Source of the DNA: an uncultured virus (IMG/VR IMGVR_UViG_3300008108_000086)
Taxonomy: Duplodnaviria > Heunggongvirae > Uroviricota > Caudoviricetes
Length of the DNA: 64,000 nucleotides
Direction: 5' to 3' (one strand)
IMG/VR virus record: IMGVR_UViG_3300008108_000086
A program made the translations under genes and the position numbers. This document shows, piece after piece, positions 6,637 to 46,782 of this stretch. Each line of letters opens with the position of its first letter. The first letter of the stretch is position 1. The notes below the pieces were generated by a model. It made no database searches and was not told the origin of the DNA. It saw only the letters and a list, made by a program, of their open reading frames with translations.

Positions 6637-6774
6637 TGGCCCAAGTACCTGCACTATTTCTACCTAAAAAGAAAACTGAGGAGAAACCTCAAGTAAAGAA
6701 TTCCGGTAAGAATCGGAAGAAAAAGAAACCCGATTCTACCACAAAAGTTTCAGCATTATTTCAAAGGGGAATTG

Positions 6775-7539
6775 ATGGTTACAAAAAAAACAACGGCCAG
6801 ATACGCAGCGGAACAACTACAAGAGGATGAAAATAAGACGAGGCATCAACCCGCAGTAAACAATTCATTAAAGATTAAACCAGACCATCTAAAGACGTTT
6901 GAACCATTAACAGAGAATCAAAGATTATTCTTTGAGATGTATAAAGGCGGTGCCTACTTCATGGGACTATTCGGTAGTCCTGGAGTAGGCAAAACCTTTT
7001 TGGCACTATATAAATCAATAGAAGAAGTTTTGGATAAATCGAATTCATTCAAACAAGTGGTGGTTGTTAGGTCACTTGTTCAATTACGTGATGTTGGTTA
7101 TTTGCCTGGTAATCTTGAAGAAAAACAAGAAATCTATGAATTACCTTACAAAGAAATTGCGGCCACACTATTTGGTCGTTCTGATGCATGGGATAGATTA
7201 AAAGAACAAAACCATGTACGATTTATATCTACTACAGCGATTCGTGGTATCTCTATTGATGATGCAATTATTATTGTAGATGAGAACCAAAACTTGAACT
7301 GGTCAGAGGTGAATACAATTATTACCCGTGTCGGACACAGGTCAAAAATTATATTTTCGGGTGATTTTAAACAGACAGATTTAATTAAGAGTAACAAAGA
7401 CCAAACAGCATTCCATAGTTTCTTAGAAGTGGCAAGAAAGATGCCATCCTTTCAGGAAATATACTTTACACCAGACGATATTGTTCGTTCAAGTCTAGTA
7501 AAACAATGGATCGTGGCCTGTGAAGACTTAGGTTACTAG
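6775..7539 (+). CDS. phoH: PhoH-family ATPase
   Basis: Walker A GSPGVGKT, GYLPGNLEEK, IRGISI, IIVDENQN, ITRVG, SGDFKQTD, DIVRS. Confidence 0.92.
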   Translation: MVTKKTTARYAAEQLQEDENKTRHQPAVNNSLKIKPDHLKTFEPLTENQRLFFEMYKGGAYFMGLFGSPGVGKTFLALYKSIEEVLDKSNSFKQVVVVRSLVQLRDVGYLPGNLEEKQEIYELPYKEIAATLFGRSDAWDRLKEQNHVRFISTTAIRGISIDDAIIIVDENQNLNWSEVNTIITRVGHRSKIIFSGDFKQTDLIKSNKDQTAFHSFLEVARKMPSFQEIYFTPDDIVRSSLVKQWIVACEDLGY

Positions 7540-7574
7540 GATAAATATTATTCCAATACATAAGAGGAAAGACG

Positions 7575-9026
7575 ATGATTTTTGAAATTCAAGCCACACG
7601 TTTCGAAGACGGTGATACACAAACATTTTTCTATGACAACATGGCTAATGTGTTGAAGGACTCCGATGGTAATCTTTTTGAATATCCACAGGACCAAATG
7701 CCTCAACATAGACTCAAACCATACAAATCTTTTGATAAGAATAGACCACTCAAGAAATCTAAATTAATTAGTCATTTAAAAATTCAAATGGGATTGAGTT
7801 GTAACTATTCTTGTGATTATTGTTCACAGAAATTTGTTGAACGTCAGCCAGAAACTTCCAAAAAAGACATTGATGTTTTTATGGAAAAATTAAATGTATT
7901 ACACTTTGATGAAGATGTTGGTCTGAAAATTGAATTTTGGGGTGGTGAGCCTCTTGTTTATTGGAAAACAATGAAACCATTGGCTGAGGCCATCGCTGAA
8001 AAATTTGATGGTTGGAAAACCAAACCACAATTCAGTGTTATCACCAATGGTTCGATACTAACTGATGAAATTATTGATTGGTTAATGATGATGGATTTTG
8101 CTGTGTCTATTTCACATGATGGACCAGGTCAATTTGTACGTGGTCCTGATCCGTTTGATGATCCTGAACAGAAAGAACGTATTTTGGGATTCTATCGTAT
8201 GATGACTAGACTTGGTAAAAGTTTTAGTTTCAATTCAATGTTGAACTCTAAAAATCAAAGTCGTAAAGAAATCTATGATTGGTTCGTAAATCTTACTGGT
8301 GACGAAAATGTTATCTTGGGTGAAGGTTCAATGGTTGATGCCTATGACGAAGAAGGTATATCATACTCACTAATCACAAAACAAGAACATTTTGATTTTA
8401 GACAACGTGCCTTTGGTGAGTTGTATGGCACAGAAGGTCAAATTGGTTTCAGAGCACAATTAGGTAAAATTGATGATTTTGTGACTGGTGTATTGTCTCA
8501 TAGAGAATCTAAATATTTGGGTCAAAAGTGTGGTATGGATGATGAACACACTTTGTCTGTCGATTTACGTGGTAACGTTATGACCTGCCAGAATGTGAGT
8601 TCTTTGGAAATTTCCAAAAACGGTGAATCACACCATGGTGGAAACTTGGAAGATTATGCGAAAGTTGAATTGAAGTCTGTTACACATTGGTCTAACCGAA
8701 AAGAATGTCCAGAGTGTCCAGTGTTACATGTCTGTAAAGGTGCATGTATGTTCTTGGACGAAAAGTTTTGGGATGTTTCTTGTGCTAATGCATACTCTGA
8801 TAACGTGGCATTATTTGCGGCCGGATTCACAGTCATGACAGGTGGTTATATTCCGACACTAATTAAGAGTGATACTCTACCTCTTGACCGACAAGATATC
8901 TTTGGTAATATATTCACGCACGAAGAAGATAAACAGAAAAAAATTATACCAATCAAGGTAATTAAAGAGATTATTGGTGAAGTTGATGAAGTTTTGGTTT
9001 ATGGTAAATCTCGTTTAGAAAACTAA
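7575..9026 (+). CDS. radical SAM/SPASM-domain protein (peptide/protein maturase-like)
   Basis: CNYSCDYC (CX3CX2C), FWGGEPL, ITNG, SISHDG; C-terminal SPASM cysteines CG...GNVMTC...CPECPVLHVCKGAC...C. Confidence 0.9.
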   Translation: MIFEIQATRFEDGDTQTFFYDNMANVLKDSDGNLFEYPQDQMPQHRLKPYKSFDKNRPLKKSKLISHLKIQMGLSCNYSCDYCSQKFVERQPETSKKDIDVFMEKLNVLHFDEDVGLKIEFWGGEPLVYWKTMKPLAEAIAEKFDGWKTKPQFSVITNGSILTDEIIDWLMMMDFAVSISHDGPGQFVRGPDPFDDPEQKERILGFYRMMTRLGKSFSFNSMLNSKNQSRKEIYDWFVNLTGDENVILGEGSMVDAYDEEGISYSLITKQEHFDFRQRAFGELYGTEGQIGFRAQLGKIDDFVTGVLSHRESKYLGQKCGMDDEHTLSVDLRGNVMTCQNVSSLEISKNGESHHGGNLEDYAKVELKSVTHWSNRKECPECPVLHVCKGACMFLDEKFWDVSCANAYSDNVALFAAGFTVMTGGYIPTLIKSDTLPLDRQDIFGNIFTHEEDKQKKIIPIKVIKEIIGEVDEVLVYGKSRLEN

Positions 9027-9059: not shown

Positions 9060-9950
9060 ATGCCACTACCAGCACCAGGTCAACCTATCGGATTTTCAAA
9101 CATTAATGCAGAACTTGGCCGAATATATACCGTTCCTACGGAATTGACTTTTTTAAATGGTTTTATAAAACCAGCTATAAGACCAGGTACATCAAATTTA
9201 GGTTCTTTTGGTGGGTTGAGATATTATAGACAGAATAATGCTGGAAATTGTAATAACGTAAACAATACCGCAAAAAATTGTAATTGTGGTAATATTCAAT
9301 GTAATAAAACCAATAATTGTACCGCAGTAAATTGTGCAAACTGTGATACTCAGGCTTGGTTACAAACTGGAGACTGTCAGTTATCAACAACACCCGTATA
9401 CAACTGCACATCAAACCAAAATTGTTTTTCTTATAATTGCAATTGTTCAAAGATTATTTGTACCAAGTTGTTTGATTTGGGATTGATGAAGAAAAACATT
9501 TTTGAAGCAGACCAAGCATTTGGTGAACGTTTGCAAAAAACTAATCCAGATATCTACAATGGTTATCGTGCATGGGCAGAAATTGTTGTTGATTGGATGG
9601 ATGGCAAAGGTCCTAAGATGATGCCTTGGATGTCCGATGAAGAATTTAGTGCAGCTGCAAAGAAATGGTCCATCACTTGGGCTCACGATATTGCAACACC
9701 TTGGGCAGAAGAAATGGCATACTTGATGGGTGAAAAGGAAACAGGCAGTCTGACAGGTAAAATGATGTTTGTGTTTGGCACACCAATCTGTAAGGTAATT
9801 GGTGTATGGCAACGTTGGTTTGGACCAAGTAAAAAAGAACCTGGTTTCTTAAAAGGTGCTGGCCTTGTTGTAATTTTTGTAATGTTCAAATTGGTTGCAG
9901 AACTAGGTCGTTTTATTGAGAGATTTATTCCAAAGAAAAAGGTGGCATAA
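9060..9950 (+). CDS. Cys/Asn-rich protein, candidate substrate/precursor of the radical SAM enzyme
   Basis: N-terminus MPLPAPGQPIGFSNINAELG; 12 Cys in about 67 aa mostly as N-C; C-terminal KIICTKL domain with terminal hydrophobic helix. Confidence 0.7.
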   Translation: MPLPAPGQPIGFSNINAELGRIYTVPTELTFLNGFIKPAIRPGTSNLGSFGGLRYYRQNNAGNCNNVNNTAKNCNCGNIQCNKTNNCTAVNCANCDTQAWLQTGDCQLSTTPVYNCTSNQNCFSYNCNCSKIICTKLFDLGLMKKNIFEADQAFGERLQKTNPDIYNGYRAWAEIVVDWMDGKGPKMMPWMSDEEFSAAAKKWSITWAHDIATPWAEEMAYLMGEKETGSLTGKMMFVFGTPICKVIGVWQRWFGPSKKEPGFLKGAGLVVIFVMFKLVAELGRFIERFIPKKKVA

Positions 9951-10240
9951 TGACGACATATTCTAGTATAAGACCGGTTAAAATATTGATTAACAATCTG
10001 GATTATACAGATGAACATCTGAGACATTTTTTTAACACATATAGTTCAAATGCCTTTGACTCAATGACGCAACAAAAAAAAGAACGTGTTTTTGAACTGT
10101 TAACAAAACATGAAAATTTACTAACAAAAATTTTTGGGAACGCTTTGGCCGAAAGTGCGGTTTTTGTTCCAAAATTGACTAGAGATAATGTTGATAATGC
10201 ATATGTTAGAGAATATAAAGAATGGTTGGAAAAACAATGA
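9950..10240 (+). CDS. hypothetical protein (paralog of next gene)
   Basis: 96 aa, TAATG coupling; ends YKEWLEKQ. Confidence 0.65.
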   Translation: MTTYSSIRPVKILINNLDYTDEHLRHFFNTYSSNAFDSMTQQKKERVFELLTKHENLLTKIFGNALAESAVFVPKLTRDNVDNAYVREYKEWLEKQ

Positions 10241-10623
10241 AAAAATATTCACATACTTTACTTCCAACAATAAAAACATATAATAATGAAAATATTTTAT
10301 ACGATAAAACATTAATACCAAATTTTGTAAAAAAAACATTCTTCGAAAGAGTTGCTGCTTTAAGTGAAGAAGAAAAAGATGAATTTTTCCGCATGAGTTA
10401 TGAGTATGAGGATGTATTAGTGGAACTATTTGACGGACAGATTCAGAAATTCACGGAAGCTGGTTGGACAACGGCAAATGATCCAATTTTTAGAAATCCA
10501 ACAGAAGAATATGAAAATTATGCATCTTTACCGAAAGATGCTGATTTGACAGATGAGGAACATCAGTTGAAATTGGAACACCTAAGACAATTTAAAGAAT
10601 GGTTTGAAAAACAAAATTACTGA
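10237..10623 (+). CDS. hypothetical protein
   Basis: ATGA-coupled start at 10237; ends FKEWFEKQNY. Confidence 0.65.
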   Translation: MKKYSHTLLPTIKTYNNENILYDKTLIPNFVKKTFFERVAALSEEEKDEFFRMSYEYEDVLVELFDGQIQKFTEAGWTTANDPIFRNPTEEYENYASLPKDADLTDEEHQLKLEHLRQFKEWFEKQNY

Positions 10624-10631
10624 TTTTTATT

Positions 10632-11324
10632 ATGACAAAAGATGACAGAGATGCGTACCATTGGTACCAAAATGCACAGAATATGTTTTGGCAAAGTCCG
10701 GTGTGGGAAGTGCAAACTAAATTCGATGAACAATTTAATGAGACATTATTGGATGAAATTTATGGTATTGGTAAAGATATTGTATTGGGTAAAGATAAGG
10801 ATCCAAACAACAGTATATGGGACTACAGTAGACCCAACTTAGATATACTCAAACAAGAAATTATAGACATTGTAACCAAGAAGATTGTGCAAAATATTCC
10901 ACAACTCAGGATGTTAAACATTCGTGGTTGTGAACACTTCATGGGTTGGGTCAATGTGCGTGAACCAGGAGAACGCTTAGAGGTGCATGGACACACCGAA
11001 TCAGCAATTGCAGCAACGTATTATATCAAAGTTAAAGAAGGTTGTGGTGACCTTGTATTATTTGATTCCGCACAGGCCATTGATTGGTTAAACAATACAC
11101 TAAGTAGTACACCAAAATTAAGAGAACGTAGATATAAACCGGTTGAAGGTAGATTGATATTCTTTCCGTCATATGTGTTGCATGGAGTTGACGAAAATAA
11201 ATCCGATGACCTACGTATTTCACTATCAACCGACCTAAGAAAAGTGGTAGATAAAAATGCACAAAATACGGTAATTTTAAAATCTTGGGCTGGTCGCATG
11301 GCAAAGATTAAAGAATGGAAATGA
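10632..11324 (+). CDS. 2OG-Fe(II) oxygenase-like protein (TIGR02466-like)
   Basis: GWVN...HGH...ATYY...GDLVLFD...EGRLIFFPSYVLHGV...RISLS. Confidence 0.85.
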   Translation: MTKDDRDAYHWYQNAQNMFWQSPVWEVQTKFDEQFNETLLDEIYGIGKDIVLGKDKDPNNSIWDYSRPNLDILKQEIIDIVTKKIVQNIPQLRMLNIRGCEHFMGWVNVREPGERLEVHGHTESAIAATYYIKVKEGCGDLVLFDSAQAIDWLNNTLSSTPKLRERRYKPVEGRLIFFPSYVLHGVDENKSDDLRISLSTDLRKVVDKNAQNTVILKSWAGRMAKIKEWK

Positions 11325-11694
11325 TGTTTACCAAGCTGGAAAAATCTTTTGATGTATAATCCCACCACACACAGATACTGAAATTATCACCTCTATAAAT
11401 TTCTATATGCAAACCGAAGGTTGCACAACAACTTTTTATAAACCGAAGGTGGAGATTCCAAAAACTGTACAGGTTGAGAATCAAACCAATGGACATATAT
11501 ATTTTGAAGAAGATTTAATTGAAGTTGGTAGTTTTGTTGCTAAAGATTATGATATTTGGTTACTTGATGTAAGTCAAATACATGGCGTTAAGGGTAAATT
11601 TAATTTACGTAAAGCCATTACCTTAGGAACTTTTGTTCATAAGTATCAGGACGTACTAGAAATGTTAAAGGAAACCAATAATGTCGTTTGTTAA
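11321..11694 (+). pseudogene. 2OG-Fe(II) oxygenase-like gene with internal deletion/frameshift
   Basis: ATG 11321 gives MMFTKLEKSFDV*; another frame from 11356 gives IIPPHTDTEIITSINFY...LLDVSQIHGV...RKAITL, collinear with the downstream paralog but lacking roughly 55 codons. Confidence 0.65.
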
Positions 11695-12352
11695 ATTAAA
11701 ACATACATATGAATATATGCCACACACCATTATACCACAAGGTAAGGCTGATTCATTTGCTGGAAAATATGGACTAGGTGTAAGACACAGTACAATTTGG
11801 ACACCAGAACCTGAAAAAGAAGTGTTGTATAAAGTTATACCTGAAAGGTATTGGAAAGATTTTCAAGTAACAAGAATGTCTATTAATAGTTTGTTGTTAC
11901 CACACGTTGATAATGATTTTATAACAACAATCAATTTTTATTATGACCCACAGAATTACAGGACAGTTTTCTTCAAACCAAAACCAGGAGCAAATTCTTG
12001 GAAGACAGAAGAAGATAGACACCATGGTGTTGATGGGGGAACAATTATAGACCAAAATGTTAATGTTGAGGAATTAAAAACAAGAGTTAAAGAATTTGTG
12101 TCTGAAAAACAAAATATGCCAACTTGTGAAGAAATAACATACGTTGATGCGGTATACACATTTGATGATGTTTATGAAATTGGATCTTTTGTGGCTCAAA
12201 CTGGAGAAGCATATATGCTGGACGTTAGAGTTGCACATAATGTTGAACCATTAGGTGGCGATGCAAAACTTAGAAAGGCTTTTGCACTTAGAACCAAATT
12301 ATATGAATATAGTCAGGTGTATGAAATGTTACAAGAAACTGGAAACTTATAA
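11681..12352 (+). CDS. 2OG-Fe(II) oxygenase-like (cupin/DSBH) protein
   Basis: LLPHVD (HxD)...TINFY...LDVRVAHNV...RKAFALR. Confidence 0.7.
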   Translation: MSFVKLKHTYEYMPHTIIPQGKADSFAGKYGLGVRHSTIWTPEPEKEVLYKVIPERYWKDFQVTRMSINSLLLPHVDNDFITTINFYYDPQNYRTVFFKPKPGANSWKTEEDRHHGVDGGTIIDQNVNVEELKTRVKEFVSEKQNMPTCEEITYVDAVYTFDDVYEIGSFVAQTGEAYMLDVRVAHNVEPLGGDAKLRKAFALRTKLYEYSQVYEMLQETGNL

Positions 12353-12362
12353 AGGATAAGAA

Positions 12363-13157
12363 ATGTTTTTCGAAAAATTAAACTATACAGTAGATATTGA
12401 AAAATTAAAACAAGAAGTGAAAGATAGTGTTTTCACTTTGGGTGACCAAGTTATTCAAGGCGAAGAATACGAAACACCGAAATATAATGGATTTGGTGGA
12501 TGGAGTTTACTGTGCAAAGAAGCCACATGGACTGGCGGTTGGGAAGCTGTTCAATTAGAAAAAGGACAATCATTAGAATCATTCTTACCAACAAATGAAT
12601 TAGTCGCAAAAGCATACAAATTTTTTAATATATCACATGGTCTAGAACATGATAAACCTACCGAAGCATATGTTGGTGAAATTAAAAAAGTTCTGGACGA
12701 TATACGTGAGATGGGTTTTTATCCTACAAGAGCAAGGGTTACTTGTTTGAAAGCACACTCAAAATCTTTGGTGCATAGAGATGCTGATGAAACGGAATAT
12801 ATGGCTCGTATTCATATTCCATTATTCACAAACAAGAAATGTGTGCATATATCCCAAGGTAAAAATTTGCATATGCCTGCTGATGGTAGTGTCTGGATTC
12901 TTTGGGTGAATCAATGGCACCAAATTCGAAATGACTCGGATGAAGACCGATATCATATCATCATGGATGCATATGACACCAAAAAGGTAACAAAACATTT
13001 TAATTATGACGGAGAATTCGAACAATTACAAAATTTTGTAAGAGGGTTCCGACAAAAAATTGATGATGCTGAATTAACAGATGAAGATATTGATTTTTTT
13101 GAGGCAATTAGAGAAAGATATGTTACCAAAAAAGTTAGAGATAACGAATTCATTTAA
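12363..13157 (+). CDS. aspartyl/asparaginyl beta-hydroxylase-like dioxygenase
   Basis: VHRD...RIHIPL...HMPADG...WHQIRN...DRYHIIMD. Confidence 0.8.
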   Translation: MFFEKLNYTVDIEKLKQEVKDSVFTLGDQVIQGEEYETPKYNGFGGWSLLCKEATWTGGWEAVQLEKGQSLESFLPTNELVAKAYKFFNISHGLEHDKPTEAYVGEIKKVLDDIREMGFYPTRARVTCLKAHSKSLVHRDADETEYMARIHIPLFTNKKCVHISQGKNLHMPADGSVWILWVNQWHQIRNDSDEDRYHIIMDAYDTKKVTKHFNYDGEFEQLQNFVRGFRQKIDDAELTDEDIDFFEAIRERYVTKKVRDNEFI

Positions 13158-13160
13158 ATT

Positions 13161-14678
13161 ATGACCGATATACATGGTATTGTTTTTACCGGTATGGAAC
13201 GAACTAGAACAATTAGTCGGCCGGCCGGTGCAGCAAGATTAAGAACTTTTTTAGAACCACATGGTTATAACCTTGAGGTCGTTGATTACTTTGGTAACTT
13301 CACTGAAGAAGAAATTGAAAGAGTTTGTGATAGATTTATTGGACCAAAAACTTTGTTTGTTGGTATCAGTATTACGTTCATATATGCTTTTGATAAATTG
13401 AATCATTTATTCAAATACATCAGAGAAAAATATCCACAAGTGAAAACATTGATTGGTGGTAATGAGACACCAATTGATGGTGTAGATTTAACACAAGTTG
13501 ATAGAGTTTTTTGGGGTTATGCTGAAGAAGCCGTATTACACTACCTTAAATTTCTAAACAAAAAACGTTTGGATGATTTGAAATGGGTACCATACAAAGG
13601 AACACTATCTATCAATGCAGAAATGCTATATAAAAATGATGATAGTGATTTAACAATCAAATGGTTAGAAAGTGATTTAATCAAAAACAATTTCTTGCCG
13701 ATTGAAATTAGTCGAGGATGTATATTCAGATGCCGATTCTGTGCCTTCCCATTGTTAGGCAAAAAGAAAAATGATTATATTCGCCATGTGGATAATTTAG
13801 CCGCAGAGTTGCGTAGAAATTATGAAATGTTTGGTGTGAATAACTATTGGTTCAATGATGATACATTCAATGACAATGTGGTTAAATTGGATTATGTTGC
13901 TGAAGCTATTGCAAAGAGTGGTATTAAGATTACTTACACAGCATTCTTACGTGCAGATTTGATTGAACGTTTTCCAGAAACTATACCTATGTTGGCTGAC
14001 ACTGGTTTGGTTGCTGCAACATTTGGTTTGGAAACATTTCATCCTGAAGCAAAGAAGGCCATCGGTAAAGGCCTAGATAATGAAAGACAGTTTGAAGCGA
14101 TTAGACAGTTAAAGAAGTACAAACCAACCTACACTTATACAGGAATGATTTGTGGTTTACCTGGTGAACCCCTATCTAGTGTATACAAGAGTCAGAAAAT
14201 GTTATTGGACCAAAATTTTGAAGTGTTTGACAATTGGGATTGGTGGCCCTTGGTTATCAGAAAAAATTCTGTTAGTCGCCTAAGTGAATTTGAAAAGGAA
14301 TATGAGAAGTGGGGTTATAGTGAATTATTACCCGGAGAATATACGATACCAGAAGGTGATGATGATACACGATATCACAACGATGACAGTAATTTGTTAA
14401 TTTGGAAAAATAAATACTTAAACTATTTCAATTCAAGAAAAATTACAACCGATTTAAATGTGGAAACAGAACAACACCGAATTAAAGCAGGCAAATCAAT
14501 TTATGGTAATGCTGATAAAGGTGTCAGTATCAACCATGATGTATTTGAATTGGTTGGTATGGGAGTTGATATTAAAGATATCATTGATGGAACATTCGAC
14601 AAAACTTTTTTGAATAAAAAAATTGAAGAAGCGGATCAAACTATCCTTGAATATAAAAGATTAAAGTTAGGATTATAA
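13161..14678 (+). CDS. B12-binding radical SAM protein
   Basis: N-terminal cobalamin-binding-like region (GAARL...EVVDY, VGISIT, LIGG); IEISRGCIFRCRFC; DDTF; GLET; GLPGE. Confidence 0.85.
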   Translation: MTDIHGIVFTGMERTRTISRPAGAARLRTFLEPHGYNLEVVDYFGNFTEEEIERVCDRFIGPKTLFVGISITFIYAFDKLNHLFKYIREKYPQVKTLIGGNETPIDGVDLTQVDRVFWGYAEEAVLHYLKFLNKKRLDDLKWVPYKGTLSINAEMLYKNDDSDLTIKWLESDLIKNNFLPIEISRGCIFRCRFCAFPLLGKKKNDYIRHVDNLAAELRRNYEMFGVNNYWFNDDTFNDNVVKLDYVAEAIAKSGIKITYTAFLRADLIERFPETIPMLADTGLVAATFGLETFHPEAKKAIGKGLDNERQFEAIRQLKKYKPTYTYTGMICGLPGEPLSSVYKSQKMLLDQNFEVFDNWDWWPLVIRKNSVSRLSEFEKEYEKWGYSELLPGEYTIPEGDDDTRYHNDDSNLLIWKNKYLNYFNSRKITTDLNVETEQHRIKAGKSIYGNADKGVSINHDVFELVGMGVDIKDIIDGTFDKTFLNKKIEEADQTILEYKRLKLGL

Positions 14679-40410: not shown

Positions 40411-43400
40411 ATGGCTTTAAATTTTAACGTTGATCCATACTTTGACGATTTCGATGGAGCAAAAAACTTCCATCGTATATTGTTTAAACCTGGTGTTGCT
40501 GTACAAGCAAGAGAATTAACACAAGCGCAAACTATATTACAAAATCAAATCACCAGTTTTGCGGACAACATTTTCAAACAAAATTCTCCTGTTACAGGTG
40601 GACAGGTTACGACCAATTTTGATGTAAAGTATATTAAGATTCAAGAATCATTTGAAGGTATCAATATTGATATCGAACAATTTGAAAATAAATTAATTAG
40701 AAATGCTGATGGAACTGTTGTTGCTAGAGTTATAACAACTGCGGTAGCAACAGGCACCGCAGGCGAAGGTGATGCGGCAACATTGATTGTTTCATACAAA
40801 ACCGGAACACAATTTACCGACAACGATATCATTTATGATTCAGATTCAAATCTAGCCTGTCAGGCTATGCCAAGTGAAGCGGTAGGTCCATCATCAATTG
40901 CATCCATTTCACAAGGCGTTTTCTATGTACTAGGTAACTTTGTTCAAGTAACTCCACAAACAGTTATCTTGGACAAGTATGGTAATACACCATCAAGACG
41001 AGTTGGTTTGGAAATAACCGAAACAATATTCGATTATGCAAACGATAATTCATTGTTGGATCCAGCAGTTGGTGCATCCAACTATCAAGCACCAGGTGCA
41101 GACCGTTATGTAATTAGTTTACAGATATCTTCAAGACCTTTATTTTTTGGTGACGATTCTTTGTTTATTGAATTGGTTAGAATTGAGGAAGGTAGTGTAT
41201 ACAGAATGGTTGATGGTTCAGTCTATGCAACCATTGATGATTACTTTGCGAAACGTGACTATGAAACTAATGGTGATTATATAATTCAAGATTTTAAATT
41301 AACACCAAAAACTTATGCAGATGATGAAGACAAATATACCATGAACGTTGGTAAAGGTCTGGCTTATGTACACGGATATCGTGTGGAAAATCCATCACCA
41401 ATTAACATCATCTCCAATCGTGCAAGAACAACAGCATCCCAAAATAACGAACCATCTTTCATAGATTATGGTAGTTATTTTTTGGTTAGTAACGTTGCCG
41501 GTATAGGTACAGCCACATTTCCTGTAACAACAGCCAACACAGTAGATTTCCATTGTGTGGCCAATACAAATATCAATACTGCAAACACCTCAACTTATAA
41601 TTCCACATTAGTTGCAACAGCATACATTCGTGGACTACAATTAGATAGCACACCATCAAACAGTGATGCGTCAACTTATGTTTTCAAAGCACACGTTTAT
41701 GATATTGAAAACAAATCAATTTCAGCAAATGTTATCTCAGCAAATGCAACATCAATAGTATTGGCTAGCATTAATGGTATAACATCATCGGTAGATGGTG
41801 CGTATGAAGGTGTTGATGTTACTATCACCAGAGGAACCAATGCAGGTGAGACCAGAACTATTTCAAATTACAATGGCACCACAAGAGTTGCAACAGTAAG
41901 CCAATCATGGAGTGTTACACCTGATAGTTCATCAGTATATGTTTTAAACTTTGATACACCAGATATTGAATCTATGGTGTTTACAAACAGTGATAACACA
42001 TATCCAAAAGTAAGATATGCCAGTGCAAAGATTGACAATCAAGGAAAAGTTGGTAACATACCATCAGGTGATGCCATTTTTGAAAATCCAAATATACCAG
42101 AAATGATTTACCCAATTGGTAATCCATTTGTTTCTGAGATTTCATCACCATCTTATACAACATATCAAGAAATTAAAGGTATAAATTTTAACGTTTCTGG
42201 TTCAACTCTGTCAGCTGAATTGTCTTACACAAGTAGTTACGCCAACGTTATTAAACATTTGGGTAATGAAGGCACAACATTATCAGGTGATGTTGTTGAA
42301 CAATGTTATACAATTATTGTTACAGACAGACAATCAAATAGTACACTGACTAATGGTCAAGTTGTTCCTTGGACATTGAATGGTAGAAGTGTTACCTTAA
42401 ACAATGATGGTTCGGTTGCAACATTCACAACACCAACATCAGATTTGACCGCATTTACTGCAACAATTATTGCAAAGGTGTTTGTTGTTGATGGTACTAA
42501 CACTAGTCACGTACTAAGAATTAAGAATCTAGTCACAGGAAATACAACAGCAGTATCAAGTAATGCTTCTGGTTATATGACTACTGTAGCTACAAATACA
42601 TTTGTTGATGACTCAGCAAGTTCAACAGGTCACGTTTATATTAAGGCAGCTGGTGTTTTGGCTAATGGTTTAAAACAATCATTATATTTGTCTGATGTTA
42701 AACAAATTATAAAAATTATTGACACAAAAACCAATGTGTATCCAACTCTGGATATGTTAACAAACAGTTCTTATGATGTTACAAACAGATACACATTTGA
42801 TAATGGTCAAAGAGATAGTTATTATGACCATGCATCATTAACATTAAGACCGGGTGCTGTTAAGCCTACAGGCAACCTTCTTATTATTCTAGACTATTAT
42901 AAACACAGTGGTGGTGATGGTTACTTTAGTAAAATGTCATACATTGATAACTCAAGTTCACCAGAAAACTACAATGAGATTCCATCATACACCAGTAAAC
43001 ATGGTGCCGTGTATTCATTGAGAGATTGTATAGACTTTAGACCTTCAATACTCAATGCACAAACACAATTTGTTTTCCGTTATTCTAATCCTTCTTCAAC
43101 TAGATTAGGTACATTACAGCCAGCAGATTTGTCAACCTTTATTTGTGACTATTCTTATTATCTTGGACGTAAAGACAAACTGATTATATCAAAAGATAAA
43201 TCAATTCAAATCATTGAGGGTTCACCTTCTATTAATCCATTGTTGCCTAATGCACCAGATGGATCACTAGTTTTGGCCAACATTACACATAGACCATATA
43301 CAGGATATGTTCCAACAGAAATCTCAACTGGACTATCCGATTTGTCTATAGAATCGGTACAAAATCGCCGTTATACCATGTCAGATATTGCTGGATTGGA

Positions 43401-46400
43401 TACAAGAATTAATAGAATTGAATACTATACAGCGTTAAATGCATTGGAACAAAATGCAAATTCATTGCAGATTTCTGATGCATATGGATTAAACAGATTT
43501 AAAAACGGTATTATGGTTGATGATTTTTCTGGTTACTCAGCATCCGATTCTGGAGTTGCAGACTTTAATGCATCTATCAATCGTAGAACAAAGCGCATGA
43601 CAGCAAAACAAACTGTCAAAAACTTCCCGTTAAAGAGTTTGGCGTTAGCTTATAACATGGAAAAAGCAACAAGTAGTGCAATTTCTTTATTGAATTTTGC
43701 ACGAACATCATCCGGTTATAACAACTACTTCTCTTTACCATACACATCAACAAATATTATTGCACAAAGATTGGCAAGTAGAACAGTCAACATTAATCCT
43801 TTCTCTGTCACAGAATCAAAAGGATTGGTTGCATTGTCACCTAACGTTGACAATTGGGTTGATACAACTTATTCTCCTTCACTATTAATTGTTGATCCGA
43901 ATCTACACGTTTGGCAAAGTTCAAACACAGTTAATACATTAGTGTCAGGTGATTGGCAAACAGTTGGTGGTACAACCACATTAGATAAACAAAATTCTTC
44001 GGAAACAACTTGGTCTAACGTAACTGGTGGCCGATTTACAGGTATAACAACAGAAAATGTTAAGCAAACAACTACAACATCAACATATAAAACTGTAACA
44101 AATCAAGCTGGTACAGATATACTTGGTGCATATAGTAAACTAGACAATACTTATTCATTGAATAATGGTTACATTAATGACATTAGTATTCTACCATGGA
44201 TAAGACCGCAAGAAATTACTATCAGTGCTGAGGGGATGTTATACAAGACACGGGTTTATAGTTTCTTTGATACAATTAGTACAGACAAATACATCAAGAA
44301 AACAAATGAAATTGAATTGACCAATGTTGTTGGTACATTCCAACCAAATGATATTGTTGGTTATTACTCAGCTGGCACTTTTGTACCAACAGGTATTGTT
44401 ATTGGTGTATATGATTATCCAAACTCAAATAGTATGAGATTGTATGTTGCAGGTGACGGTAAAACTACAACATACCATAACGGAAATGCTTTAGTAAATT
44501 CTACATTTAATGCTGAAGGTGTTTATCAAGCCAGCACAGCACAAGGTACTTTTAGTAGTCAGAAACATAATGGTGGTTTGATTCGCACTGTTGGCAGCAC
44601 AACGCAATTAACATTATCAACACTTGCATCTTCAACAAACACAGACTATGTTGGTCAAACTTTATATATCAATAGTGGTACTGGCCAAGGACAATCAGCA
44701 GTAATCAACGGTTATAACGGATCAACCAAAGTGATTACATTGGCGACACCAATATCTTGTGCAGTGAATGACCTATACTCAATAGGAACATTTGTAACCA
44801 ATGAAGAAGGTAGTTTCTTTGGTATATTTACAATACCTGCAAATACTTTCCACACAGGTACTAGAGTGTTCCGTATGGACAATCGTTTCAATGGAAACGA
44901 ATCTACTATAACGACATATGCAGAAGGTACATTCTATGCTTCCGGTTTACAAACAAATGCACAAAATATAGATTTCGGTGCATCACCTTCCGGAGCAAAA
45001 GACACATTCACACAAAGTAAAAAGAGAGATGTAGTAACTTACAAAACAACTGTTGATGTAACCACCACATCTTCATTCACATTTATCCCACCTGAGCCAA
45101 GAGATCCGGTAGCACAGACTTTCATCATAGATAAAGACAATTTTTCAAATGGTGCATTTATTACCTCTGTTAGAATATTCTTTAAACAAAAACCAACCAG
45201 TGATGCTGCGCCAGTAACATTATCAATTGTTGGAACACTCAATGGTTATCCAAATGGATCAACATTAGACAATTCAATTGTTACTCTACCAGCATACAAA
45301 ATTAAAACCTCTGAATCTCCACAATATTTGGATGAAACTACATACACAGAATTTACTTTCAAATCACCTGTGTACATCCAATCTGAAGTGATGTATTCAA
45401 TTGTTTTGAAATCATCTTCAAACGAATACTTATTATACACAGCCTCCAACGGAGACATAGCATTACCTTCTTCAGTTAAGAATCTTGCAACTGATCCATA
45501 TCCAAGTTCAATTACAAAAATTGGTGCAGCACCTTATGTCGGATCATTATTTTTGTCACAGAATTCTCAAACATGGACAGCGGATCAAAACCAAAGTTTG
45601 ATGTTTACTATTGAACGTGCAAAATTTGACATAACAAAAACACCTTCAATTAGAATGATTGTTCCTAAGAAGATGCCACAGAGAACATTAGTGGAAAATC
45701 AAATTGATTATTTCACAAATGCTAATACCATGGTCAACAATGTTGGTACAACTTCTGATGTTGACTTATTAGTTGATGCTTTCAACTTGACAACCACAGA
45801 TTTTGTTCCTTCATCAACAGGTATTAATTACACATATTCAGCAACATTACAAAATGGCACCGACACCTCAGAGGTGAATATTAATCCAGGTAAATATGGT
45901 ACAACAATGTACGAACACATTTATTTGAATGATAATAAGGGTCAAAGAATTATCAAGGCCAATTCAACAACATCTTTCTCGATGTATGCATACTTGATTT
46001 CAACTGACGATGCGGTATCACCAATTATTTCTGATGCAGGCACTTCAGTATTCACAATCGAATATGATATCAACAACTGTGAATTGTCAAACGGTTTAAT
46101 TTCTATCACTAGTGGTGGTAGTGGTTACAATGTTCAAAACACAACAGTTACAATTTCACCACCAACTGGTAAAAATGGTGAACAAGCTTACGCATCAGCT
46201 AATGTGGTTGGTGGTGTTATTGATGCAATTTATATTACCACACCAGGTGCAGGTTACATCGAAACACCAACCATCACAATCGTTGATGCAAATAACACAC
46301 CAGGAACTGGCGCAACAGCTGTTGTTGCTGGTGAAACTTCTGTTAAGGGTGGTCCAGCCGCAACAAGATACATCACCAAGAAGGTTGTATTAGAAGGTGG

Positions 46401-46782
46401 ATTTGATTCAGGTGACCTAAATGTTTATTTGTCCGCATATCGTCCTTTGGGAACCGATGTTAACGTGTATTATAAAGTCTTGAGTAGAAATGATACACAA
46501 GGTTTTGATGATGGTTATTGGCAGTTAATGACAAAAACAAACAGTAGTGATGGATTATATTCACAATCAAGAAATAACCTACATGAATACACATTTGCAC
46601 CAGGAACTTTAGGTAAAGAACAAGGTTTTGTTTCTTATTTAAGTAACAATGGTCAAACATACTACACATTCAGTCAGTTTGCTATCAAAGTTGTATTAAC
46701 AACGACAGACAGTACCCTTGTTCCATATTTGTCTGACATAAGATGTATTGCTTTACCACCAAATACTAACACTGTATTCTAA
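40411..46782 (+). CDS. large virion structural protein, VrlC/DUF4815-like
   Basis: FNVDPYFDDF...ILFKPG.AVQARELTQ.Q; APGADRY; RFKNG.MVDDF; DPVAQTF. Confidence 0.8.
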   Translation: MALNFNVDPYFDDFDGAKNFHRILFKPGVAVQARELTQAQTILQNQITSFADNIFKQNSPVTGGQVTTNFDVKYIKIQESFEGINIDIEQFENKLIRNADGTVVARVITTAVATGTAGEGDAATLIVSYKTGTQFTDNDIIYDSDSNLACQAMPSEAVGPSSIASISQGVFYVLGNFVQVTPQTVILDKYGNTPSRRVGLEITETIFDYANDNSLLDPAVGASNYQAPGADRYVISLQISSRPLFFGDDSLFIELVRIEEGSVYRMVDGSVYATIDDYFAKRDYETNGDYIIQDFKLTPKTYADDEDKYTMNVGKGLAYVHGYRVENPSPINIISNRARTTASQNNEPSFIDYGSYFLVSNVAGIGTATFPVTTANTVDFHCVANTNINTANTSTYNSTLVATAYIRGLQLDSTPSNSDASTYVFKAHVYDIENKSISANVISANATSIVLASINGITSSVDGAYEGVDVTITRGTNAGETRTISNYNGTTRVATVSQSWSVTPDSSSVYVLNFDTPDIESMVFTNSDNTYPKVRYASAKIDNQGKVGNIPSGDAIFENPNIPEMIYPIGNPFVSEISSPSYTTYQEIKGINFNVSGSTLSAELSYTSSYANVIKHLGNEGTTLSGDVVEQCYTIIVTDRQSNSTLTNGQVVPWTLNGRSVTLNNDGSVATFTTPTSDLTAFTATIIAKVFVVDGTNTSHVLRIKNLVTGNTTAVSSNASGYMTTVATNTFVDDSASSTGHVYIKAAGVLANGLKQSLYLSDVKQIIKIIDTKTNVYPTLDMLTNSSYDVTNRYTFDNGQRDSYYDHASLTLRPGAVKPTGNLLIILDYYKHSGGDGYFSKMSYIDNSSSPENYNEIPSYTSKHGAVYSLRDCIDFRPSILNAQTQFVFRYSNPSSTRLGTLQPADLSTFICDYSYYLGRKDKLIISKDKSIQIIEGSPSINPLLPNAPDGSLVLANITHRPYTGYVPTEISTGLSDLSIESVQNRRYTMSDIAGLDTRINRIEYYTALNALEQNANSLQISDAYGLNRFKNGIMVDDFSGYSASDSGVADFNASINRRTKRMTAKQTVKNFPLKSLALAYNMEKATSSAISLLNFARTSSGYNNYFSLPYTSTNIIAQRLASRTVNINPFSVTESKGLVALSPNVDNWVDTTYSPSLLIVDPNLHVWQSSNTVNTLVSGDWQTVGGTTTLDKQNSSETTWSNVTGGRFTGITTENVKQTTTTSTYKTVTNQAGTDILGAYSKLDNTYSLNNGYINDISILPWIRPQEITISAEGMLYKTRVYSFFDTISTDKYIKKTNEIELTNVVGTFQPNDIVGYYSAGTFVPTGIVIGVYDYPNSNSMRLYVAGDGKTTTYHNGNALVNSTFNAEGVYQASTAQGTFSSQKHNGGLIRTVGSTTQLTLSTLASSTNTDYVGQTLYINSGTGQGQSAVINGYNGSTKVITLATPISCAVNDLYSIGTFVTNEEGSFFGIFTIPANTFHTGTRVFRMDNRFNGNESTITTYAEGTFYASGLQTNAQNIDFGASPSGAKDTFTQSKKRDVVTYKTTVDVTTTSSFTFIPPEPRDPVAQTFIIDKDNFSNGAFITSVRIFFKQKPTSDAAPVTLSIVGTLNGYPNGSTLDNSIVTLPAYKIKTSESPQYLDETTYTEFTFKSPVYIQSEVMYSIVLKSSSNEYLLYTASNGDIALPSSVKNLATDPYPSSITKIGAAPYVGSLFLSQNSQTWTADQNQSLMFTIERAKFDITKTPSIRMIVPKKMPQRTLVENQIDYFTNANTMVNNVGTTSDVDLLVDAFNLTTTDFVPSSTGINYTYSATLQNGTDTSEVNINPGKYGTTMYEHIYLNDNKGQRIIKANSTTSFSMYAYLISTDDAVSPIISDAGTSVFTIEYDINNCELSNGLISITSGGSGYNVQNTTVTISPPTGKNGEQAYASANVVGGVIDAIYITTPGAGYIETPTITIVDANNTPGTGATAVVAGETSVKGGPAATRYITKKVVLEGGFDSGDLNVYLSAYRPLGTDVNVYYKVLSRNDTQGFDDGYWQLMTKTNSSDGLYSQSRNNLHEYTFAPGTLGKEQGFVSYLSNNGQTYYTFSQFAIKVVLTTTDSTLVPYLSDIRCIALPPNTNTVF

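Follow-up and report, generated by a model that had tools for sequence, protein, structure and literature searches.

How should one read a viral protein in which a short segment with 12 cysteines, mostly preceded by asparagine, sits between an N-terminal motif and a compact C-terminal domain, immediately downstream of a gene for a radical S-adenosylmethionine (SAM) enzyme? The question is raised by the open reading frame (ORF) at positions 9060 to 9950 (the target) of the 64,000-nt stretch analysed here (the window), which belongs to IMG/VR record IMGVR_UViG_3300008108_000086. The window derives from a marine T4-like myovirus with a G+C content of 36.5%, and its 20-63 kb region holds a full baseplate, tail-tube and fibre gene set by PHROG matches. 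Its closest cultured relatives are Pelagibacter phage HTVC008M and Methylophilales phage Melnitz, at ~41% identity in a gp6-like wedge protein. We put at about an even chance the explanation that the target is a phage-only, three-module protein of the tail-fibre or adhesin-accessory type, in which the core is modified by the adjacent enzyme, the head and tail are generic fibre-type modules, and the tail with a downstream partner protein forms an assembly or docking unit that is possibly removed. Cross-linking of the Asn-Cys core by the adjacent enzyme is probable on the sequence evidence given below.

The target matched no Pfam, PHROG or NCBIfam family (Pfam cut E <= 0.01). It was found to have 674 homologues at E <= 1e-3 among 977 candidates, and its Atlas clusters consisted of viruses (100%). 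Three antisense ORFs over the same region (91, 121 and 114 aa) were rejected as unsupported against a plus-strand ORF with that many homologues. The ORF, its leader, the position of the core (aa 63-129, nt 9246-9446) and the Cys count with its preceding residues were all exactly as described in the first-pass annotation, which had been made from the letters alone. The 67-residue core contains 18 Asn and 12 Cys; the residue before Cys is Asn in ten cases, Gln in one and Asp in one, and four NxxC motifs are present. Ten or more NC dipeptides were reached in 1 of 200,000 composition-preserving shuffles of the core. Among 106 full-length homologues, the 12 core Cys were kept at 0.64-1.00 and most of the preceding Asn at 0.71-1.00, and the pattern is therefore under selection and not due to chance. 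Mean identity to the target across these homologues was highest in the C-terminal domain (C-domain; 0.76), followed by the core (0.66), the last helix with the tail (0.57) and the leader (0.45), which contradicts the earlier expectation of a hypervariable core between conserved flanks.

Two adjoining genes had not been mentioned in the first-pass annotation: a radical SAM/SPASM gene directly upstream and a small partner gene directly downstream. The upstream enzyme carries the CxxxCxxC radical SAM motif (CNYSCDYC) and the complete SPASM seven-Cys pattern (C..GxxxxC, CxxCxxxxxCxxxC, ..C), and both the motif and the SPASM cysteines (C319, C338, C378, C381, C387, C391 and C403) are invariant in an alignment of 24 homologues. 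It matched Pfam Radical_SAM PF04055 (E = 6.2e-9; 36.7 bits, cut-off 29.5) and phrog_1802 (E = 1.2e-58). The top NCBIfam matches were all maturases of the type that acts on peptides that are ribosomally synthesised and then modified post-translationally (RiPPs), namely PapB (6.7e-22), QhpD (1.1e-17), SCIFF (9.7e-14), geopeptide and CcpM, and near full-length alignments were obtained with CcpM (62-396), DynA (75-401) and anSME (72-392). The closest PDB sequences were 8vpo_A (8.3e-12) and CteB 5wgg_A (9.3e-8), the former being cited by a paper on radical SAM cyclopropyl synthases. The N-terminal ~60 residues of the enzyme are conserved over both of the clades introduced below, with F3, I5, Y20 and N22 invariant. 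A structure prediction of the enzyme with target residues 1-135, SAM and three 4Fe-4S clusters returned scores of 0.00, 0.32 and 0.00, which speak neither for nor against binding.

Evidence linking the enzyme to the core comes from 78 IMG/VR loci encoding a target relative. Loci were classed as Asn-Cys-type when at least 6 NC dipeptides preceded the KIIC junction, and as other when there was at most 1; one locus (L022) was truncated. The enzyme was present in 50 of 50 Asn-Cys-type loci, ending <100 nt upstream of the target relative in 42, lying 162-1480 nt upstream in 7 and downstream in 1, and it was absent from all 27 C-domain loci without an Asn-Cys tract (0/27). A scan of the 27 enzyme-free loci (305 kb) for runs of Asn-Cys or Asp-Cys found none. 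An independent context was encountered in L044 and L080, where the N-terminus is different, a run of six NC stands directly before the C-domain, and the enzyme is 42% identical. Two tandem paralogues of ~100 aa ending in NC runs were also observed in L080 (3022-3327 and 3337-3633); they adjoin the C-domain-bearing paralogue and lie ~4 kb upstream of the radical SAM gene.

With the L044/L080 enzyme as query, 27 further loci of a second enzyme clade were retrieved, 24 of which include 4 kb or more of upstream sequence. In 19 of these 24, an ORF with at least four Asn-Cys or Asp-Cys dipeptides in 40 aa was found, nearly always at the extreme C-terminus, and Cys-run variants at the protein end were seen in two more, leaving 3 with none. 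In total, the enzyme lies near tail-fibre genes that end in Asn-Cys or Cys runs in 21/24 loci. The second-clade Asn-Cys proteins are tail-fibre proteins of 175-356 aa with the run at their end, and nine of ten submitted matched tail-fibre PHROGs. The cultured Achromobacter phage JWF encodes the enzyme (43.5% identity) inside its tail-fibre cluster, where the NC/DC run of fibre gp028 is followed directly by a Hint domain from residue 308 (Pfam Hom_end_hint; 47.5 bits, cut-off 32.1). Ralstonia phage RSP15 is a weaker case, in which a side-fibre fragment ends in ..NCQCGN two genes before the enzyme. Literature searches returned, in the parts of the sources that were accessible, no paper on Asn-Cys tracts or on radical SAM modification of phage fibres.

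CxC and CxxC spacings are abundant in the core, and the framework could also be read as a metal-thiolate domain (metallothionein-like or Fe-S-like) or as a disulfide knot formed without an enzyme, the radical SAM gene being adjacent for Fe-S handling or for an unrelated substrate. Residues that alternate along a trimeric fibre tip can form the lining of a metal axis (the HxH iron sites in T4 gp37 are an example), which counts in favour of the metal version. One study also describes many Fe-S-related genes in T4-like marine phages (PMC5332604). Against this, Asn-Cys tract and enzyme are paired in three or more gene contexts and in none of the 27 controls, and metal binding leaves the conserved Asn before each Cys unexplained. 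The Cys count upstream of the junction ranges from 11 to 17 among relatives, odd numbers included, and a fixed disulfide set therefore fits poorly; assembly in the cytoplasm would argue against such a set as well. We consider a metal-binding or purely disulfide-bonded core unlikely.

Under enzymatic cross-linking, as co-occurrence and enzyme family suggest, the radical SAM/SPASM enzyme would take the Asn-Cys framework as its substrate. Several Cys thiols would be joined to nearby residues by thioether cross-links resembling those of ranthionine or sactionine, for which the flanking Asn are plausible acceptors, and these links may lock a segment unable to fold alone into a rigid, redox-insensitive knot. 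The N-terminal motif and the six-helix C-domain are not specific to this chemistry; they would provide a scaffold, which in related phages also carries proteins that are Cys-free and Gly-rich. The C-domain and its translationally coupled partner may act as a two-gene assembly or docking module for fibre-type proteins, with a logic comparable to that of a fibre C-terminus and its downstream chaperone. If the C-domain is dispensable or removed in the mature product, the Asn-Cys tract would come to lie at or near the mature C-terminus.

The leader carries the motif M-x-LP-x-SG-x-I-x-x-S-[DN]-I-N-x-E-x-G ... L-x-F-L-N-G-[YF]-I-K-P, which occurs once within the window, and it is the least conserved of the modules. 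A hidden Markov model (HMM) built solely from 36 distinct Asn-Cys-type leaders matched five C-domain proteins that are Gly-rich and Cys-free (L036, L038 and L047-L049) over residues 1-23 (E 1.8e-5 to 0.015 among 2704 ORFs), with the next unrelated ORFs at E >= 0.02. This bears out the earlier remark that the leader resembles the N-termini of small phage proteins. None of these five loci has the enzyme within 6 kb. The occurrence of the leader on Cys-free proteins without the enzyme marks it as a structural head in common use rather than a peptide by which the enzyme recognises its substrate. The second-clade Asn-Cys proteins have no leader altogether. A word search with the leader alone (residues 1-58) gave one match, a close homologue, and was uninformative.

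These features bear on whether the target is a classical RiPP precursor, in which the leader would be recognised, the modified core cut out as a bioactive peptide, and the C-domain used as a follower or export part. A RiPP-type enzyme does adjoin the target, and the minimal family member, P0162 (182 aa), has just 14 residues with a run of four NC before its C-domain; this protein may be a true mini-precursor or may have a mis-called start. However, a classical precursor is a short peptide with a conserved leader and a hypervariable core, whereas the target has 296 residues and a core that is more conserved than its leader, and so it is not a classical RiPP. The occurrence of the leader on Cys-free proteins without the enzyme also speaks against such a precursor, as does the nature of the second-clade substrates, which are whole tail-fibre proteins. 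No peptidase or transporter was found among the neighbours in the Pfam, PHROG and NCBIfam scans. We regard this explanation as very improbable. The first-pass annotation had favoured a virion role over a secreted RiPP, and the fibre and baseplate context of the C-domain relatives agrees with it.

At residue 131 (KIICTKL) the target changes abruptly to a helical part, as had been noted from the letters, with AlphaFold2 (AF2) helices from H133-139 onward. Folded alone (37 rows), this C-domain reached a predicted local distance difference test (pLDDT) of 94.1 and a predicted template modelling score (pTM) of 0.86, with six helices and an all-alpha fold; it is called the KIICT domain here. Residues 131-296 recur at 70-78% identity behind unlike N-terminal parts. 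A HMMER search of 1.84 billion representatives gave 733 clusters (50% identity level) at E <= 1e-3, 228 at 1e-10 and 44 at 1e-30. In every case the domain occupied the extreme C-terminus, in proteins of about 150-1859 aa. A Pfam scan of 40 long representatives recorded Gly_rich_2 in 14, DUF4815 in 9, a He_PIG Ig domain in 1, HYDIN-type Ig domains in 2 and nothing in 14.

Where C-domain proteins have no Asn-Cys tract, they were located in clusters of tail-fibre or baseplate genes. The domain ends gp5-like hub proteins in L072 and L076-78 (Gp5_OB; phrog_430/694), the first of the two pieces into which a giant baseplate protein (phrog_358) is split in L054 and L056, and Gly-rich proteins inside fibre clusters. 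Two C-domain genes occur in 4 loci, while the window has one, and several fibre-cluster proteins of one phage were found to bear the same C-terminal module (L037, L062 and L068). The only cultured carrier is Synechococcus phage SynMITS9220M01, whose gene 028, directly after a 'fiber protein', has the C-domain behind a long poly-Pro and poly-Arg spacer; the search of cultured phages recorded the domain in this 1 record only, and a short-type query found none. The domain is absent from the nearest related record, G001 (26 kb). It was also noted that the split phrog_358 genes lie at L054:1060-6546 and 6857-8395 and at L056:2014-6504 and 6972-9020, the second piece matching the later part of the profile, and that the window's own phrog_358 protein (40411-46782, plus strand, 2123 aa) is unsplit. 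In L040 (6939-7682), a Gly-rich fibre-cluster protein has after its poly-Gly a different C-terminal module, starting GCCVISSALAEK and with a clear hydrophobic helix, which could represent another variety of such terminal modules.

Searches for a known identity of the C-domain were negative. A PDB profile search with its alignment gave 0 matches at E <= 10, Foldseek of its model against the PDB gave 0 at E <= 1e-3, and the named ESM Atlas clusters gave no usable match; BFVD matches were all uncharacterised phage proteins. The best VIA-align score was Z 6.3, to the NEL E3-ligase domain of SspH1 (root-mean-square deviation 3.4, 110 aligned), followed by SlrP at 6.1, and neither is read as homology because these values lie inside the noise range for helical bundles. 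Identity as a Peptidase_S74 intramolecular chaperone was rejected, with no Pfam match to the target at E <= 0.01. A scan for KIICTKL and GY.AWA patterns over the genomes of 185,579 species matched 35 stretches, none of which was confirmed, and thus no prophage copies were found by these patterns.

The first-pass annotation had further described a hydrophobic last helix with a basic tail and had proposed that it tethers the protein to a membrane. The description stands: the Kyte-Doolittle maximum over 19 residues is 1.98 at 262-280, and the protein ends in ..PKKKVA. The tethering proposal fared less well, and a membrane role of the last helix is possible but not established. The whole protein could on this basis act in the infected cell, outside the virion, as a tail-anchored membrane protein (for instance in exclusion, the timing of lysis or host takeover), with the C-domain in the inner membrane and the Asn-Cys part cytoplasmic. 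The 19-residue maximum is at least 1.6 in 86 of 112 full-length representatives, some with 19-20 uncharged residues, the penultimate helix is also moderately hydrophobic (0.76), and the gene lies among early and metabolic genes. In opposition to this, K265, K278, E282 and R285 fall in or beside the hydrophobic segment, where a tail anchor would have about 19 or more uncharged residues, with conserved Lys/Arg in mid-helix, and the last helix is missing in 29 of 141 representatives. AF2 also models the domain as one compact unit, with the last helix at pLDDT 94-95, and the same domain ends the gp5-like hubs, phrog_358 pieces and Gly-rich fibre-cluster proteins described above. We judge a membrane protein of this kind to be quite unlikely.

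Returning to a fibre-type protein, we assessed the junction before the C-domain, which was readable in 121 representatives. It consisted of poly-Gly in 66, a Cys run in 12, a Hint end (..HN, then K) in 4, poly-Pro in 1 and other sequence in 38. The Gly_rich_2 protein P0148 contains a complete Hint domain exactly between its poly-Gly linker and KKIICT, and P0180, P0192 and P0202 show the same Hint end at the junction. Hint domains cleave at their first Cys. Because the residue after HN is Lys, cleavage rather than splicing would be expected in these relatives. A Hint or Hedgehog-type domain has a beta fold with a Cys first at the junction, whereas the C-domain of the target has six helices, and its invariant Cys134 stands three residues into the domain, in predicted helix 1. 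Of the earlier proposal of a cleavable C-domain, the autocleaving part was thus not supported, no autoprotease feature having been found in the target. For removal itself the points are circumstantial: the Hint ends in relatives, the NC run as the natural protein end in the second clade, and the Hint domain that follows the run in JWF.

The small gene downstream of the target matched no Pfam or PHROG family, and its family shares the motif LSxxEKxRLFxMLTDxAxxLxKIxPN...YxAWK. A partner HMM with 14 seeds was applied to every ORF of the loci and the window (6387 in total). Of the 78 loci, 61 have the partner as the next gene behind the C-domain gene, comprising 47 of the Asn-Cys type, 13 others and the truncated L022; among the 17 loci without it, two leave no space for it. 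The adjacency of the seeds is by construction because they were themselves downstream ORFs; the informative part is the absence of partner matches anywhere else, with only three exceptions, each of which follows a second C-domain gene. In L080 the partner stands behind the single paralogue with a C-domain, whereas the two paralogues ending at the NC run have none after them, and the partner is absent from all other second-clade loci, where Asn-Cys fibres occur without a C-domain. From this distribution, the partner tracks the C-domain and not the enzyme. Partner proteins are 52-143 aa and helical as judged by sequence pattern only, and the 52-aa ORFs after the gp5-like fusions align weakly to them (hhalign probability 55%, E = 1.2e-4). 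In SynMITS9220M01 and L040 a different small downstream ORF takes the place of the partner; it belongs to a second small-ORF family found after C-domain genes (L079:6519-6860, L040:6507-6926 and SynMITS9220M01), with the motif C-[VL]-IYNAI..N-[DN]-NP-[YW]-D.

Several observations weigh against reading the target as a cross-linked, fibre-type protein. Most of the 50/50 co-occurrence count reflects shared ancestry, because all but one of these 50 loci (49) come from a single syntenic lineage, and the independent events behind the 21 second-clade loci number fewer than 21, because many of these loci are near-duplicates. The enzyme does not reach any curated NCBIfam cut-off (best PapB, 78.2 bits against 340), it is far under the cut-off of the named ranthipeptide and sactipeptide maturase families PapB, SCIFF, CcpM, QhpD and TIGR04463 in all 25 matches listed, and its N-terminal extension (~60 aa) is shorter than in the aligned maturases bearing a RiPP recognition element. 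The core was modelled as disordered (residues 47-131 at pLDDT <50), a low AF2 confidence that may partly stem from a shallow 22-row alignment. The target itself has no fibre-profile match and lies among early and metabolic genes such as PhoH and the oxygenases, outside the window's own fibre cluster. A Hint domain is missing from 117 of 121 representatives, and the Pfam scan of the target recorded no protease signature or Hint profile match.

The new elements are the leader on Cys-free proteins, the widespread phage-only C-domain, the coupled partner gene and the Hint domain at the junction of relatives. A broader proposal, which we hold to be possible but doubtful, is that unrelated tailed-phage groups cross-link Asn-Cys tracts at host-binding fibre ends by RiPP-type radical SAM chemistry, with marine T4-like phages making the tracts as pro-proteins and using the C-domain and partner as a general, removable fibre-maturation cassette. 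If this were true, enzymatic cross-linking of the thioether type, so far described for peptide antibiotics and a single archaeal protein, would take part in how phages build their host-recognition parts and would add a new layer to virion maturation. It would also give a testable role and names to two large unannotated phage families, the KIICT domain and the partner; in abundant marine phages, both occur fused or linked to hubs of the gp5-like kind, to giant baseplate proteins and to Gly-rich proteins of the adhesin type. Among cultured phages, gp028 and gp030 of Achromobacter phage JWF and gene 028 of Synechococcus phage SynMITS9220M01 offer a starting point.

The target stands in a plus-strand block in which PhoH, the radical SAM/SPASM gene, the target and two small paralogous ORFs are followed by further genes (table below). 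The promoter/terminator scan recorded no plus-strand terminator-like sites between 7953 and 10147, which is weakly consistent with co-transcription, and 30 promoter-like sites, below the shuffle expectation of 37.2. The genes from 10632 to 14678 are syntenic in the window's own lineage and do not accompany the enzyme in the second clade or in the cultured phages. Because only the enzyme, plus a 2-oxoglutarate (2OG) oxygenase twice, is shared between the two enzyme clades, the oxygenases and the B12-binding radical SAM gene of the window are not attributable to the Asn-Cys tract. The Asp/Asn hydroxylation consensus of the epidermal growth factor type, compared with the core by eye, did not fit, and we therefore make no claim for the AspH-like neighbour. 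The best match of the B12-binding radical SAM gene was to PhpK-family P-methyltransferases (1.3e-27), far under the cut-off. A 95-aa ORF (11407-11694) is paralogous to the C-terminal portion of the 223-aa ORF that follows it (11681-12352); their tblastn matches overlap in many loci, and neither has a Pfam or PHROG family.

Table. Features of the target region of the window, listed by position.
Feature	Position	Strand	Details
PhoH	6772-7539	+	
Radical SAM/SPASM enzyme, probable core modifier	7575..9026	+	483 aa; 33 nt upstream of target
Target ORF	9060..9950	+	296 aa, three modules; stop codon 9948-9950
Module 1, N-terminal motif (leader)	9060..9233	+	aa 1-58, from homologue alignment
Module 2, Asn-Cys framework, probable radical SAM substrate	9234..9449	+	aa 59-130; 12 Cys
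Module 3, unnamed six-helix C-terminal domain ('KIICT domain')	9450..9947	+	aa 131-296
Last helix, hydrophobic/amphipathic, then basic tail	9846..9926	+	aa 263-289
Small partner gene	9950..10240	+	96 aa; start overlaps target stop codon
Partner paralogue	10222..10623	+	133 aa; partner HMM E 1.4e-4
2OG-Fe(II) oxygenase	10632-11324	+	Pfam/NCBIfam
Two unnamed genes	between the 2OG-Fe(II) oxygenase and the Asp/Asn beta-hydroxylase-like gene	+	
Asp/Asn beta-hydroxylase-like gene	12363-13157	+	Pfam/NCBIfam
B12-binding radical SAM gene	13161-14678	+	Pfam/NCBIfam

Four known systems were compared with the target and its neighbours. For the CrpC/CrpA system of Methanococcus voltae, ranthionine-type thioether cross-links are reported on a protein and not on a short peptide, and the system sets a precedent in the literature for a protein-sized substrate of such an enzyme (PMC13692751). 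[quoted passage not shown] However, the system is archaeal and cellular, not viral, its acceptors lie in CAGM, CAVD, PCAGD and CPLV motifs instead of Asn-Cys, and CrpA has neither a helical C-terminal module nor a partner gene (PMC13692751). The window enzyme scored only 45.6 bits against the TIGR04463 family, where the cut-off is 525.

The ranthipeptide and sactipeptide systems (PapB/PapA freyrasin, CteB/SCIFF, NxxcB/NxxcA and QhpD/QhpC) resemble the target locus in enzyme superfamily, in providing the best profile matches and in their Cys-rich substrates. Asx residues act as thioether acceptors in several of them. The target differs as a conserved protein of 296 aa in a phage-fibre context, without a hypervariable core, leader peptidase or exporter. 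Type-A bacterial intein-like (BIL) and Hint domains differ in that the target has no Hint domain and an all-alpha C-domain; the likeness lies in the relatives, where a Hint domain ending in ..HN stands exactly between passenger and KIICT in 4/121, and in JWF, where it comes after the Asn-Cys run. Tail fibres with a downstream assembly chaperone are exemplified by lambda Tfa, T4 gp38 and P2 gpG. The partner has no sequence or profile similarity to known chaperone families; nevertheless, the arrangement is alike in both cases, with a small gene directly after a fibre-type gene accompanying a C-terminal module.

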